IMG/VR virus record: IMGVR_UViG_3300021400_002728
Coordinates: 197,154-261,153 of that record
DNA: 64,000 nt
Direction: 5' to 3' (one strand)
DNA from: a virus
Lineage: Duplodnaviria; Heunggongvirae; Uroviricota; Caudoviricetes
A program made the translations under genes and the position numbers. The notes under the pieces are model-generated. The model was not told the DNA's origin, ran no database searches, and was given only the letters and a program-made list of their open reading frames with translations. Below, one piece after another: positions 27,368-35,257 of the stretch. Positions within the stretch are counted from its first letter, which is position 1, and each line of letters opens with the position of its first letter.

Positions 27368-27843
27368 TTACTGAACGAAGTCCTTGAGATCAGTAAAGAC
27401 AAGAGTCTTAATCTTATCCTTATACTTAGAAGCCTTCTCGAAGTCTTTGATATACTTATCACATCTCTTAAGAATTACGTCCTTATCTGTGTCCTGAGGA
27501 ACCTTGACATAAAACTCCTTATAACCGTCTGTCATAACTACGATAGAAGCATATCCAGCTTTGACTGCTTTCTTATAATACTTCTCATAATCTGCGAGAA
27601 CTAAGATCTCATAAAGCAGACACTCAAGACCATAAATGCTATCCGGTCCATAAAACTCTTTTGCTACTGCATCAAGTTCCTTAGTATCAAATTCATATTA
27701 ATCAGGTCCACCCCCCAACCGTCTTGAGACCAGAAACCTTTCTTAACTCCATTGAAGTAAATATTTCCCTGATAATTAGTCGGATATTCATGACCTCTAA
27801 AAGTCTTTACATTCTTTATCTCGATTCCTTTTATACTTGCCAT
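27368..27843 (-). pseudogene. paralogue of 59960-60433 frameshifted in a G6 tract
   Basis: MASIKGIEIKNVKTFRGHEYPTNYQG..WSQDGW, then G6 (27711-27716) shifts frame; other frame continues to ..VFTDLKDFVQ*. Confidence 0.8.
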
Positions 27844-30079: not shown

Positions 30080-30637
30080 TCATGAAGCTTTTAATTTATA
30101 TGTCGGATGATTTCTATGCATAGTATCATCTATAAAATACTGATTATAATCTCCAGTGGCTTCAAGCATTTCTCTAGTAACTACATCAAAATACTTAATT
30201 AGTTCAGCTAAAGTGTCATCTTTCTGATTATACATTAAACGTTCAAATTTATGATTTAATTGTTCATTTATAGGTCGATTAACTAATAATCTTCCCCAAC
30301 CTTCTATATCATTACAATTAAACTCACCTTGTTTAAATGAAAAATCAAATAATTCATCATAACTAGAATGTTTTCTATAGTTCTTTACAATTTTGCTAAC
30401 AATTCGTTCAATATATTGTTTAGATTTAGGACTATAAGGCTTAACTTTACGCTTTTTCATTAGAGGTTTAACGATTGGCTTAAGCAAAAATAGAATTAAA
30501 CACAAAACCCAACATACAGGTCCAGCTATAATAATGTCAAGAGTCTCAACGATATAATAACCAGAACTGTCTTTATATAAGGTTACAATCGTTAAAATCA
30601 ACGAATAGATCAAAATCGTAATTATTACTTGCAGCAT
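30080..30637 (-). CDS. membrane hypothetical protein
   Basis: two N-terminal hydrophobic segments. Confidence 0.75.
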   Translation of the reverse strand: MLQVIITILIYSLILTIVTLYKDSSGYYIVETLDIIIAGPVCWVLCLILFLLKPIVKPLMKKRKVKPYSPKSKQYIERIVSKIVKNYRKHSSYDELFDFSFKQGEFNCNDIEGWGRLLVNRPINEQLNHKFERLMYNQKDDTLAELIKYFDVVTREMLEATGDYNQYFIDDTMHRNHPTYKLKAS

Positions 30638-31405: not shown

Positions 31406-33223
31406 TTATATAATAAACACTTGAATTGACTCATATTCTTTCTTTTGATTACCGTCTTTTCTAGTAAAATGACTAGATTTCTGTTGTAAAATAATCTCTT
31501 CTACAAAAGAATAACCTAAATCCAAGATTTGTTTATTCATATCTTTCTTAAATCTTTGATTGATTTGATAAGCAACTATCTTACAATCAGATTTCTGAAT
31601 AACTGATTTCCACCAAGTTAAAAACTCTTCATAAGAAAGATTCTCTGCACCATTATCAGTATAGATTTCAGTATTCCAATATGGTGGACAAGTAAATAAT
31701 ATATTACTAGTAAAGCTACCTTTACTTGAATCCCCATACTTAACTGTAGCATTGATATTATACTTATCAATCAAAGTATTAAGACCTTCCACAACATTAT
31801 CATTTATATCAAATCCTAAATATCTGATTCCATATTGATGACAAGTAAGCAGTCTCTCACCCCAACCAGAACAAGGGTCATATATAGTAGAAGGCTTATA
31901 TTTTTCAATAAACTGTATCATACCAGTATTATCAAATGTACTATACTTTCTAAGTTTACCAGAAATACTAAGTCCATTTAATAAGGCAAGATTAGAAAGT
32001 TGATGTGGTAACTTATCTAAATACTTGTATCTGTTTATGAATAGCTCACCTAATACCAATGGATTATCAAGCATTTCAATTTCTCTTTTAAAATACTCAT
32101 TCCAGTTAGCAAGTTTAGCTATTTGAGTCACATTCTTAATTTTGTCTGGAAGTGTGTCATGTTCAGAAAAGTCTCTGTTAAATATAAACATAAACTCTTC
32201 TTCTGACCAACATACTAGATAATTAAGATTGTTTTGCTGAGCAGTCTCTAACTTCTTTAAGTCTGATTCAGTCCATACATGAATAGCTATGTCAAAAAAT
32301 TTAGTATGCTTTGCTTTCCATTCTTCTAAAACTTTAATATCTTCTGAATTATTAGAATCAAAGAAATGACCACCATGTGTCCAAAAGAAATTACATTCTA
32401 CATATAAATCTAACTCAGGCACATACATATCACATTCAAATGGATAAACATCTGAAGTATAATGATGTACAGCATTAGGAAATATAGACTGTAATAAATC
32501 ATAACATTTATCTTCTGACTGAGATTTTCCATAGGTTCCATGCTCATGTAGAGTTCTTCTACGTTTAACCTTAAATTCTTCAGAACCTAAATATTGTCTA
32601 CTTTTGTTAGACTTCCCATAATTATCATAGCCATATCTGGACAGCATTGTAGATTTACCTTTTTCTCTAACTTCCTTAGATTTCATAGGGTTATCTACAC
32701 CATAATGCTCCATATATGATTGTTTCTTCTTTTCAAGAACTTCTGAGGAAGCATAAACATTATCTACTCCATAACGTTCTTGAACTGTTTGCTTACACTT
32801 TTCTCTATTAGTAAAAGTAGAGTTGCCATATCGCTTTTCTTTAGTAGCAGCAATTTTCTTAGCTGTTTCTGAACTAGCCATTCCAACTCCACCATGATTT
32901 TCAATAATAGTTTGTTTAATTTTCTGTTTTACTTCATCTGCTTGAAATGGATTTTCTACTCCATACTTTTCTAAATTAGTCTGTCTAGCTTTCTTTAGTC
33001 TAGACTTAGCATTTGCAGAATTTTTTTCTGACATTATTTTAGCTCTACATTTTTTACAACGTCCTCTTTGTTGATAAAGTTTACTTGGTAATATTTCAAA
33101 ATCACCATGTTCTTTACAAGTAACAATAATAGGAGTTGTATAAGATTTCCAATCTATATTAGAAAAATCATACTCTGGAAATAACTTTTCACATTTTTCT
33201 AAAAATTGTTCCTTTGTAATCAT
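31406..33223 (-). CDS. homing-type endonuclease (Zn-ribbon, KYGV repeats, Vsr/PD-(D/E)xK-like) fused to an amino-DNA-methyltransferase domain
   Basis: CKEHG..CKKC; repeated 'TNLEKYGVEN'; CDMYVPELDLYVECNFFWTH; IYDPCSGWGERL (SAM motif) and FTCPPYW (catalytic-like motif); start at MITKE behind AAGGAG. Confidence 0.8.
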   Translation of the reverse strand: MITKEQFLEKCEKLFPEYDFSNIDWKSYTTPIIVTCKEHGDFEILPSKLYQQRGRCKKCRAKIMSEKNSANAKSRLKKARQTNLEKYGVENPFQADEVKQKIKQTIIENHGGVGMASSETAKKIAATKEKRYGNSTFTNREKCKQTVQERYGVDNVYASSEVLEKKKQSYMEHYGVDNPMKSKEVREKGKSTMLSRYGYDNYGKSNKSRQYLGSEEFKVKRRRTLHEHGTYGKSQSEDKCYDLLQSIFPNAVHHYTSDVYPFECDMYVPELDLYVECNFFWTHGGHFFDSNNSEDIKVLEEWKAKHTKFFDIAIHVWTESDLKKLETAQQNNLNYLVCWSEEEFMFIFNRDFSEHDTLPDKIKNVTQIAKLANWNEYFKREIEMLDNPLVLGELFINRYKYLDKLPHQLSNLALLNGLSISGKLRKYSTFDNTGMIQFIEKYKPSTIYDPCSGWGERLLTCHQYGIRYLGFDINDNVVEGLNTLIDKYNINATVKYGDSSKGSFTSNILFTCPPYWNTEIYTDNGAENLSYEEFLTWWKSVIQKSDCKIVAYQINQRFKKDMNKQILDLGYSFVEEIILQQKSSHFTRKDGNQKKEYESIQVFII

Positions 33224-33312
33224 TTTTATTTCTCCTTCATAGAAATATAATAAGCAGCTTAGTGATGAAGGCACTATTACTCAAAGGCTCATGACTTCCT
33301 TTGCTCCCTGCA
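33224..33312 (-). ncRNA. structured 5' leader (3-way junction + kissing loop over the RBS), copy A
   Basis: covaries with 35258-35345; loop CCTTCAT complementary to loop ATGAAGG. Confidence 0.65.
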
Positions 33313-33320
33313 TTATTAAC

Positions 33321-34164
33321 TTAATTGTAGAGATACTCGTATATCTCCAATGCAGTCATTTCTTTTTCTTCGCCGGCTACACGAACTTTAATTTTTTCGT
33401 CTTTATCAAACTCACGACCGGTAATCCAAATTTTACCAGTCCAGTCTGTGGGCTTATAGTCTGCGACGTCATTCAAACCAATTTTCTGCATCTTCTTATT
33501 ACGAGAATACATAACTGAACGTCCAATTCTTAAAATCTCTGCAGCCTCTTGAACAGAGTTAGCAACGGCAACTACACCATTCATTCCCTTAAAAGGATAA
33601 ACATTATTAGACTATATCATATTCTCTAATTAGAGAACCCTACCACTTCGATTTAATAGACTGATATTAGACTAATCTCATCTAAATGCTAACCATATTG
33701 GCTCTACTCTACTTACTTCGTGCAAATGCCTTATTTTCATACCGTATTTCAGGTCCTATAGCTTTCGATAGTCGTTGAACCCGTCTCTGTTACCAAGACT
33801 TGGCTGCTGATTTTCCATTCTTATAACCCTTAGGATTTAACCATAGGTCATCCAAATTATTTTTTCTGCTTTCGCTGCATATCACGTTTAGTATTTCTCT
33901 TACGTTGTAGCTAATTTGGCATTAGGTTCGTATTCATTATAAGAATACTGTTCCAGCAATTCAATAGGGAATTTTTCACGCATGTCACCATACGCGGGAG
34001 CTTCATCCTTTAAAAACGCACTCCGTTTGCTTTATGTCTACAAGCGCAACCGATATTTTATTATTATGTTCGATTCTTTAGGCTTTCGCCTAAATACAAT
34101 GGAATATGACATTCCTCAAAGTGACACTATTGTGCGAAATGAGTCCTCGTTTAGCTGTCTCCAT
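33321..34164 (-). CDS. fragmented FtsK/SpoIIIE-like ATPase middle segment with N-terminal intein C-tag; join(34164..34093, 34071..34020, 33601..33321), 134 aa
   Basis: GGAGG RBS; reconstructed METAKRGLISHN|SVTLRNVIFHCI-EHNNKISVALVDIKQTE-FYPFKGMNGVVAVANSVQEAAEILRIGRSVMYSRNKKMQKIGLNDVADY follows the FtsK pattern between Walker A and Walker B. Confidence 0.75.
33602..34019 (-). mobile_element. group I self-splicing intron (418 nt, no internal ORF; IA-like)
   Basis: P AATTGCTGGAA (33961-33951), Q AATCAGCAG (33812-33804), R GTTCAACGACTA (33780-33769), S ATGATATAGTCT (33620-33609); P1 GGAGT/GCTCC with U.G at the splice site; P10 AAAGGATGAA/TTTATCCTTT; terminal G; splicing restores the frame. Confidence 0.9.
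34072..34095 (-). other. candidate translational bypass (ribosome hop) element
   Basis: ATT TAG GCG AAA GCC TAA AGA ATC: Ile take-off, stop inside TTTAGGC-GAAA-GCCTAAA hairpin, Ile landing 21 nt later. Confidence 0.6.
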
Positions 34165-35257
34165 TGTAATCATCACCTCCTTTTATAAACTGTTTAGTTT
34201 GAGCTATATTTTTACATTTTCTACAACAGTACATTTGATAACCTCTAGTGAAGTTAATATACTTAGTAGGTTTATTACAAACTAAACATTTCCCTTCATT
34301 ATTAGATTTTATATATGTATCATAATATTCTTTGCAAGTAATCTGTTCATTAAATCTAATATGTGCAGACAGATAATTACCATTTTGAAAAGTCTGATTA
34401 CATATTAGACATGTCATTGGATTATTTTTTATTTTAGGTACATATACAATAGTTCTTGGTTTATCATACTTAAATTTTTTATACCAATATTTATCTTTAT
34501 ACTTCTCTTCACAATACTCTAAATATTGCTTAATATCACTATATGACCATACTATAATGTTGTTTGTATCAATGCATTTTTGTTTATCAGAGTCTTTTAA
34601 TGTGCCATCTGAATTTAGATATTGATTACCTTTAACTTCTATAATATCAGCATTTATTTTAAAGTCAGGAAAATATTTATGTGTAATATTATTTGAGTCA
34701 GTATAAGTCAATATGATAGGTAAACGTTCTATAGGTATATTATGATCTTTATGCCAAATATATACGGCAACTTCCCAAGATGAATCAAATAATTGATTAT
34801 CATAACTATAATATTTTCTAGACTGTTGGATATTTTTGTCTTGCATTGGATGTTCAACACCATATTTAGCTAAACTGTTCTTCTTATGTTCAACCTTAAA
34901 ATAATCAGTTTTGAATATTTCATCTTGTCCATATTTAGCTTTTATAGTTTTCCTAATCTTAGATCTAACTTCTTTAGAACTTAATACACTTTCTACACCA
35001 TATCTTTCTAGATTAGTGTCTTTATGTTTCTGTTTACATTGTTCTGTATTATGAGAACATCGTAAGCAATATTCAAAATATCCATATATAACATTTTTGA
35101 ACTTAGTAGGTTTTCCGCAGGTTTTACAAAATCCATCATTGGTTTTATGTAAATAAGTATCATAGTATTGTTTAGTTTCTATTTTATGTGCTTGCTTAAT
35201 ATGTCCTCCAAATCCAATATTAGATTCAAATTCTTTTCCACAAATAAGACATTTCAT
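34151..35257 (-). CDS. homing-type endonuclease (Zn fingers, KYGV repeats, TnsA-like PD-(D/E)xK)
   Basis: CLICG..H...H, CKTCG; FDSSWE, YFPDF, IIEVKG; duplicated Zn module at C-terminus. Confidence 0.8.
   Translation of the reverse strand: MKCLICGKEFESNIGFGGHIKQAHKIETKQYYDTYLHKTNDGFCKTCGKPTKFKNVIYGYFEYCLRCSHNTEQCKQKHKDTNLERYGVESVLSSKEVRSKIRKTIKAKYGQDEIFKTDYFKVEHKKNSLAKYGVEHPMQDKNIQQSRKYYSYDNQLFDSSWEVAVYIWHKDHNIPIERLPIILTYTDSNNITHKYFPDFKINADIIEVKGNQYLNSDGTLKDSDKQKCIDTNNIIVWSYSDIKQYLEYCEEKYKDKYWYKKFKYDKPRTIVYVPKIKNNPMTCLICNQTFQNGNYLSAHIRFNEQITCKEYYDTYIKSNNEGKCLVCNKPTKYINFTRGYQMYCCRKCKNIAQTKQFIKGGDDYNGDS

Follow-up and report, generated by a model that had tools for sequence, protein, structure and literature searches.

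A 21-Nucleotide Stop-Codon Hairpin in a Fractured Jumbo-Phage ATPase Gene Is a Candidate Miniature Translational Bypass Element

How is a conserved phage protein made from a gene whose reading frame is closed by a stop codon only 24 codons after its start? The question arises in the window, the 64,000-nucleotide stretch analyzed here; it covers bases 197154-261153 of a phage genome (G000) that is complete, has terminal repeats, and measures 394,266 bp. On its minus strand, at 34098..34069, the sequence TGT ATT TAG GCG AAA GCC TAA AGA ATC GAA sets a stop directly behind an Ile codon. We consider it somewhat more probable than otherwise that the 21 nt following ATT are a coding gap crossed by programmed translational bypassing, not homologous to the gap of T4 gene 60; both the hop and its efficiency are what we infer from comparison of sequences.

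The layout of the interrupted gene, in window positions and in the direction of transcription, is as follows.

34173..34183, minus strand: Shine-Dalgarno sequence AAAGGAGGTGA, read directly; strong, with 8-nt spacing to the ATG.
34164-34162, minus strand: start codon ATG, read directly.
34093..34164, minus strand: coding piece 1, 24 codons, METAKRGLISHNSVTLRNVIFHCI, the last being the take-off codon ATT (34095-34093); the homologues P0004 and P0006 go on ...FHCIEHNN.
34077..34094, minus strand: predicted take-off stem-loop UUUAGGC-GAAA-GCCUAAA, a perfect 7-bp stem (centroid structure, -8.9 kcal/mol).
34072..34092, minus strand: putative 21-nt coding gap TAGGCGAAAGCCTAAAGAATC, absent from uninterrupted homologues.
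34020..34071, minus strand: coding piece 2, EHNNKISVALVDIKQTE plus the first base of a Phe codon, collinear with homologues.
33602..34019, minus strand: putative group I intron of 418 nt; its match to Rfam RF00028 lies below the gathering score, and its removal restores a homologue-like reading.
33321..33601, minus strand: coding piece 3, (F)YPFKGMNGVVAV...EIYEYLYN plus the stop codon; 158 homologues found.

The homologues were collected with the downstream frame 33321-33584 as the query; a tblastn search of coding piece 3 against GenBank phages gave no match. In the uninterrupted homologues (P0004, P0006, P0014, P0087, and others), the protein runs ...GLISHNSVTLRNVIFHCI-EHNNKISVALVDIKQTE-FYPFKGMNGVV.... 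Since these proteins join HCI directly to EHNN, the window gene carries exactly 21 nt extra at this point. By this alignment, the window gene is a conserved gene with two interruptions, the 21-nt gap and the 418-nt group I intron, and the product with both taken out has 134 aa.

The gap begins with TAG (34092-34090), contains a TAA (34080-34078), and has a 3' tail rich in A; its last triplet is the landing codon ATC (34074-34072), and GAA follows directly at 34071. A sequence-only reading of this DNA had placed ATT and the following TAG in the 5' arm of a perfect TTTAGGC-GAAA-GCCTAAA hairpin, and this was confirmed on the minus strand at 34094-34077: the 5' arm consists of the last two bases of the take-off codon, the UAG, and GC, and the TAA lies in the 3' arm. 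The same reading held that one tRNA serves both the take-off codon and its synonymous partner ATC, and indeed the phage encodes the tRNA-Ile(GAU) that reads ATT and ATC. Its statement that protein-like sequence resumes after ATC holds for only 17 codons, after which the group I intron begins at 34019 and runs to 33602.

The stem-loop has a fold z-score of -2.8. Perfect hairpins with a 7-bp stem and a 4-nt loop number 17 in the window, against about 9 expected, and 4 of them have GNRA loops, against 0.65 expected. Because such hairpins are common in the window, the hairpin proves nothing by itself, and its significance comes from its context, an insert in a conserved gene. A chance hairpin was considered and set aside; the other three GNRA hairpins of the window were accounted for by a terminator and by chance palindromes in coding sequence. 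We also rejected the hairpin as the P1 of the downstream group I intron, since 17 exon codons lie between them and the true P1 and P10 are found at 34024-33997.

The intron starts 51 nt downstream of the gap. Its predicted P1, GGAGU/GCUCC, places a U-G pair at the splice site, and its P10 (GGAUGAA/UUUAUCC), beside the guide sequence, has 7 bp. A P3-P8 core follows, and the 3' end is a terminal G at 33602, with 8 nt between the P7 3' strand and this G and no P9. Against Rfam RF00028, the element scored 25.3 bits (E 6e-4), which is below the gathering score of 50 bits. Unannotated stretches of Staphylococcus, Enterocloster, and other phages match the core at 74-79% identity, and two paralogous introns are present in the genome at G000:C1:265063-265560 and G000:C1:267164-267606. 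Removal of the 418 nt restores E-F-YPFKGM, as in the homologues. With the U-G pair in P1, P10, the P3-P8 core, the terminal G, and the restored frame, the element has the predicted features of a group I intron.

The interrupted gene belongs to a larger ATPase. An FtsK/SpoIIIE-like profile (Pfam PF01580, positions 53-135) matched residues 10-88 of the homologues, just after Walker A, and all coding pieces lie within this one FtsK-like domain. Longer unsplit relatives (P0244, 385 aa; L196-L199) read ...CVGSTGGGK-SVTLRNVIFHCI..., which identifies the window gene as the C-terminal fragment of a fractured ATPase. The N fragment, of 430 aa, was found at G000:C1:318668-319960 on the minus strand (locus L227), 88 kb from the C fragment. 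The split falls at Walker A, and the N fragment ends TGGGK-AIYIDQSVEVQSDEV*. Between CVGS and TGGGK, the N fragment also carries about 155 aa of Hint-like inserted sequence. The C fragment starts METAKRGLISHN|SVTL, and its opening 12 residues look like an intein C terminus (..GLISHN|S); in P0249, an intein-like ORF ends GLIHHN|SVTL. P0121 and P0122, which lie directly upstream of the endonuclease gene, were both rejected as the N-terminal partner.

Two endonuclease-like genes flank the C fragment.

34151..35257, minus strand: gene for a free-standing homing-endonuclease-like protein of 368 aa, DUF7487 (Pfam PF24308 at 1e-16; PHROG "homing endonuclease").
31406..33274, minus strand: second DUF7487 endonuclease-like gene, directly downstream of the interrupted gene, assigned by sequence matches.

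The end of the upstream gene overlaps the start of the interrupted gene. Its orthologues stand directly upstream in L121, L192, L195, L209, L210, and L126, and a site-1 insert is present in every one of these loci. Gaps occur in nearly all split loci, and the split alleles adjoin DUF7487 endonuclease genes; the four unsplit loci (L196-L199) have no gaps and no intron, and the unsplit P0244 has no insert either. The downstream gene is a fusion: its N-terminal half is of the DUF7487 endonuclease-like type, and its C-terminal half (DPCSGWG ... TCPPY) is like a DNA methyltransferase.

Because the window gap of 21 nt stays in frame, its length by itself does not discriminate between readings. Homologous loci were drawn from IMG/VR, ENA/Logan, and JGI metagenomes; of the 37 obtained, 33 are distinct. 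In each, four conserved N-terminal peptide segments were located. Short inserts were found in 28 of the 33 distinct loci, only at three fixed sites within the first 40 codons (after SVTL/TLR, after FHCI/V, and after VDI), with up to three inserts in one gene (e.g. L125). The 34 unique inserts are 5, 6, 7, 9, 10, 11, 15, 17, 18, 21, 24, 25, 26, 29, or 38 nt long, and 16 of them (5, 7, 10, 11, 17, 25, 26, 29, or 38 nt) have a length not divisible by 3. Examples are an insert of 29 nt in L125, one of 5 nt in L126, and one of 6 nt in L204. The 28 insert-bearing loci are otherwise free of frameshifts and stops.

The boundaries of the inserts follow a rule. TAG, the rarest terminator in these phage genomes (4-13% of genes), is the first triplet of 30 of the 34 unique inserts and TGA that of one more; a scripted call gave a sense triplet in the remaining three. 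Two of these, starting with ATA and CCG, reach a stop within four codons, and the third, in L189, is CGC|TAG when read by hand, the scripted CGC being a boundary error. The last triplet of the insert is cognate to the codon that precedes the insert in 20 of 34 cases and agrees with it at two of three positions in the other 14. Among 446 internal triplets, by comparison, 0.4% are fully cognate to the take-off codon and 13.7% match it at two positions. Whatever the frame, no cognate triplet comes between the take-off codon and the landing triplet in any of the 20 cognate cases, as would be expected of a scanning peptidyl-tRNA.

Take-off and landing codons also covary by site and lineage (CTT>CTT/CTC, TTG>TTG, CGY>CGT/AGT, GTA>GTT), and the take-off codon ATT is paired with ATT or ATC and also with ATA, CTC, GTC, and ACC. 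The 6-nt gaps take the forms ATT TAG ATC, CTT TAG CTT/CTC, and ATT TAG CTC. The window's own insert recurs in L195, L209, L211, and L212, at 21 or 24 nt and with TAGGCGAAAGCCTAA invariant. An exact-pattern scan of viral contigs for TAGGCGAAAGCCTA gave at least 111 unrelated matches and was uninformative.

The coding sequence around the inserts is under purifying selection. In the 28 insert-bearing loci, the N-terminal 45 codons have pN 0.118 and pS 0.81 (pN/pS ~0.15), and the C-terminal part has pN 0.121 and pS 0.74. Such selection on the pieces between the gaps indicates that each is translated in its correct frame. In the insert family that the window shares with L195, L209, L211, and L212, synonymous sites of the flanks are saturated (pS 0.79), whereas the insert is 92% similar. 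Conservation of this insert suggests either that the gap is under selection or that it is spreading as a unit.

The stem is retained in three related insert families whose loops differ. All inserts of at least 15 nt have a stem whose 5' arm includes the take-off codon; in inserts of 5-10 nt, the stem is weak or absent. At site 0, the 3' arm of the hairpin is complementary to upstream coding sequence. One stem pair has changed on both sides, ACACTT/AAGTGT in L216 and ACACTC/GAGTGT in L201; this compensatory change is compatible with selection and also with an origin by fold-back repair synthesis. We recognized no nascent-peptide motif like that of gene 60 and no similarity to the gp60 peptide, and found no clear Shine-Dalgarno-like element 5' of the landing codon; the nearest sequence is UAAAGAA in the gap tail UAAAGAA(AAA), which is A-rich and weakly Shine-Dalgarno-like.

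Taken together, the window element shows what is expected of a gene 60-type bypass mechanism, namely cognate take-off and landing codons, a stop 3' of the take-off codon, and a stem-loop, and the relatives add gap lengths independent of frame between conserved flanks. The proposal of a programmed hop in the sequence-only reading is thus supported by the recurrence of stop, stem-loop, and cognate landing codon in related loci, by gap lengths of 5-38 nt without regard to frame, by codon covariation, and by selection on the flanks. The survey that it called for, of the same and similar inserts in related genomes, yielded the family of L195, L209, L211, and L212, the inserts in 28 of 33 loci, and those of a second gene described below.

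In the proposed mechanism, the ribosome would pause at the end of the 24-codon piece with AUU held by peptidyl-tRNA-Ile(GAU) and with UAG, a poorly decoded codon, in the A site. The compact UUUAGGC-GAAA-GCCUAAA stem-loop, holding the take-off codon and UAG in its 5' arm, would then form at the A site, the tRNA would release AUU, the mRNA would slide, and decoding would restart at GAA. Hop and group I intron splicing together would give the 134-aa protein, collinear with its uninterrupted relatives. The gap itself may have arisen by fold-back repair of homing-endonuclease cuts and may persist as it destroys the nuclease target while the protein is kept.

Some observations argue against bypassing. 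The 14 landing codons that agree at two positions are near-cognate, and the gaps of 5-10 nt have little or no hairpin. The lack of a recognizable gene 60-like peptide motif and of a clear Shine-Dalgarno-like element counts on the same side, as does the yield of just two gap-bearing genes in the four-genome screen described below. Matched flanking triplets, and hairpins whose arm is complementary to coding sequence upstream, would also arise from a mutational origin, such as target duplication or fold-back synthesis, without selection for hopping.

Could the gap instead be removed from the RNA? The phage is rich in self-splicing elements, with three related group I introns, and the site-0 hairpins draw the two junctions close together. 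Removal by a non-canonical route, through an unknown endonuclease/ligase pair or a trans-acting ribozyme, nevertheless appears unlikely to us. A 5'-exon U together with a terminal G at a frame-restoring boundary occurs in just 4 of the 34 inserts, with none for that of the window, and 25 of the 34 unique inserts lie in intron-free genes. On the same three counts, we rejected a core-less mini group I intron, so that the tiny excised RNA element considered in the sequence-only reading falls in its group-I-like form, since no U...G boundary fits the window insert, and is unlikely in any other. Bulge-helix-bulge geometry is absent, and removal from the RNA predicts neither a stop as the first triplet, a cognate last triplet, nor a gap interior free of cognates.

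A different outcome would be that translation does stop at the UAG and that separate or truncated pieces are made by re-initiation near the "landing" codon or at the internal Met of KGMNGV, the inserts acting as attenuators. In favor of this, the landing codon at site 0 is in some loci a start codon (TTG in L130, ATG in L187), and gene callers start many homologues at TTG or at the internal ATG. We hold re-initiation to be improbable, because most landing codons are not start codons (ATY, CTY, CGT, AGT, GTC, ACC, and CAC), and none has a Shine-Dalgarno sequence. At the internal ATG, AAGGGA abuts the start with no spacing. The selection described above acts on pieces of only 7-17 codons between gaps, and all pieces belong to the single FtsK-like domain that PF01580 matches.

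Read-through by a suppressor tRNA would turn the 21 nt into seven extra residues, and the genome has a candidate for it: aragorn predicted tRNA-Stop(tta), with the anticodon UUA and of the ochre-suppressor type, at G000:C1:114279-114350. A phage suppressor tRNA(UUA) that reads both stops in this genome would also fit the window's insert family, whose members, of 21 or 24 nt, are in frame. We regard this as very unlikely, however. Relatives carry inserts of 29 and 5 nt with the same kind of hairpin at the same site, the length of 16 of the 34 unique inserts is not divisible by 3, and the related genomes G001, G002, and G003 carry inserts and no predicted suppressor tRNA. Efficient ochre suppression would be costly in G000, where 75% of genes end in TAA, and we found no general use of in-frame stops. 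Reassignment of TAG or TGA found no support either: aligned in-frame stops show no consistent codon-to-residue pattern and all three stops serve as terminators.

Damage to a decaying gene, or to its N-terminal part, might be suspected from the fact that the gene is a fragment of a fractured ATPase, that a nearby window gene has a frameshift and a nonsense codon, and that G001 has nonsense codons in several conserved genes, but we find a pseudogene hardly credible, and the inactivating insertion with neighboring decay of the sequence-only reading was rejected, given that pN/pS in the interrupted N-terminal region equals that of the rest of the gene, that the 28 loci are free of further lesions, that the insert is more conserved than saturated synonymous sites, and that its anatomy is non-random.

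Programmed bypassing, the reading that we prefer, may extend to a second gene. Four related complete genomes were screened for gaps by nucleotide alignment gaps (which proved too noisy), adjacent tblastn HSPs, in-HSP stops, and upstream-continuation tests. This homology screen, which is insensitive to short flanks, found only two genes with gaps, the window gene and a gene at G000:195537.

G000:C1:195534-195580, minus strand: insert-bearing portion of the second gene, a conserved gene of about 140 aa (locus L219), 1.6 kb outside the window, before its start; found by the homology screen.

The second gene is unrelated to the ATPase and is interrupted after codon 15 (...NCAARI). The insert reads ATT TAG GTC in G000 and ATT TAG ATC in G001, and G002 has none. 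Its database homologues show further variants: AAC-TAGTTTTAG-AAC, a 24-nt insert with a GTAA-loop hairpin between CGA and CGA, a 13-nt insert from ATT to ATA, and a 9-nt gap. Across relatives, the inserts of this gene are 6, 9, 12, 13, and 24 nt long, with matched flanking codons. Tentatively, and with slightly less than even confidence, we propose that a clade of gut and rumen jumbo phages harbors a family of miniature bypass elements distinct from that of gene 60, each 5-38 nt long, spread over two or more genes with as many as three in one gene, made at homing-endonuclease targets, probably by fold-back repair, and kept through efficient early hopping without the gene 60 signals.

How does this element relate to the known systems? 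In T4 gene 60, a 50-nt translational bypass occurs with a MobA homing-endonuclease cassette (Huang 1988; Bonocora 2011; Manning & Atkins, bioRxiv 10.1101/2022.08.31.505936). The MobA element splits the topoisomerase gene, and the 50-nt gap protects against MobA (bioRxiv 10.1101/2022.08.31.505936). In phages, programmed bypassing has been reported just for T4 gene 60 and its homologues among topoisomerase genes (Manning & Atkins 2022, bioRxiv 10.1101/2022.08.31.505936); in the papers on jumbo gut phages that were consulted, introns and inteins are reported and bypassing is not. T4 gene 60 and the window family have in common matched take-off and landing codons, a UAG directly after the take-off codon, a short stem-loop, closed by a tetraloop, whose 5' arm includes the take-off codon, and an A/U-rich 3' part of the gap. 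In both, the split gene has a free-standing homing endonuclease beside it, the gap falls in the downstream fragment, a few dozen codons from its start, and unsplit alleles lack the gap. The stem of L130, UAGCC-GCAA-GGCUA, has what we take to be the stem sequence of T4 (UAGCC...GGCUA).

Unlike gene 60, the window family has as its host an FtsK/SpoIIIE-like ATPase fragment and not a topoisomerase, its endonuclease is a DUF7487 protein, and there is no sequence homology to the T4 cassette. Given this host gene and endonuclease, the element is analogous to the gene 60/MobA cassette and not a member of its family by homology. Its gaps are 5-38 nt as against ~50 nt, at three alternative sites and up to three per gene, and take-off comes after only 16-37 residues, with no recognizable nascent-peptide signal, gap Shine-Dalgarno sequence, 5' stem-loop, or forward slippage barrier. 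By mechanism, the element is thus best described, on somewhat better than even grounds, as a probable miniature, multi-site form of programmed bypassing tied to a gene split by a homing endonuclease.

The byp elements of Magnusiomyces capitatus mitochondria are 27-55 nt long, in 81 copies, with up to 12 per gene (bioRxiv 10.1101/2022.08.31.505936). As in the window family, one gene can hold several short gaps, whose palindromic cores are G+C-rich against an A+T-rich background; the flanking codons match, the codon in the A site is decoded poorly, and the gaps look like miniature mobile or recurrent insertions. The window family differs in that it belongs to phage/bacterial translation, has shorter gaps and a stop in the A site instead of an unassigned sense codon, is linked to homing endonucleases, and is known from two genes so far.

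Short hops in E. coli offer another precedent: ribosomes are said to hop over a slow codon such that 9 nt specify one amino acid (CUU-UAG-CUA), work attributed to Weiss et al. in 1987. The 6-nt gaps of the window family are exactly such a configuration, which here is fixed in natural, selected genes and there was a low-efficiency laboratory event. Fractured genes with split inteins and an intervening free-standing endonuclease were reportedly described by Dassa et al. in 2009. The window ATPase resembles them in its split Walker A, in a C fragment that starts ..GLISHN|S, in an endonuclease gene directly upstream, and in relatives with an intein-like ORF at the same point; it differs in that its N fragment lies 88 kb away and in that its intein-like tails, of about 15 and 12 residues, are too short for a Hint fold.

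If bypassing is confirmed, the locus would be an independent counterpart of gene 60, with dozens of natural variants in gap length, hairpin, codon pair, and frame relation, and these would form a ready mutational series for the minimal requirements of the ribosome for a hop. Bypass gaps would be tied to conflict with homing endonucleases for a second time. For annotation, "broken" phage genes in which a stop is followed by a matched codon should not be called pseudogenes. Were the miniature bypass family real, short-range hopping would be a routine, selectable route by which phage genes become immune to selfish nucleases.

Apart from the inserts, other stops and an apparent frameshift were observed in these genomes. 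In G001 (IMGVR_UViG_3300011005_000632), stops interrupt the frame at six or more conserved Trp or Gln positions, spread over at least five conserved genes (for example at 30348, 34129, 46227, 46704, 54635, and 116240, of which 46227 and 46704 lie in one gene). Each stop is one base from a Trp or Gln codon (e.g. TGG to TAG/TGA, CAA/CAG to TAA/TAG), which suggests G:C-to-A:T hypermutation, sequencing errors, or tolerated nonsense codons. In the window, at about 27698-27727 on the minus strand, a conserved gene seems to be broken by a frameshift in a run of six Gs and by a TAA where the relative G001 has CAA; the disruption is either a sequencing error or a pseudogene. Finally, aragorn reported a tRNA-like gene with a 2-base "anticodon" at G000:C1:105702-105775, and similar odd tRNAs are present in G001 and G003.
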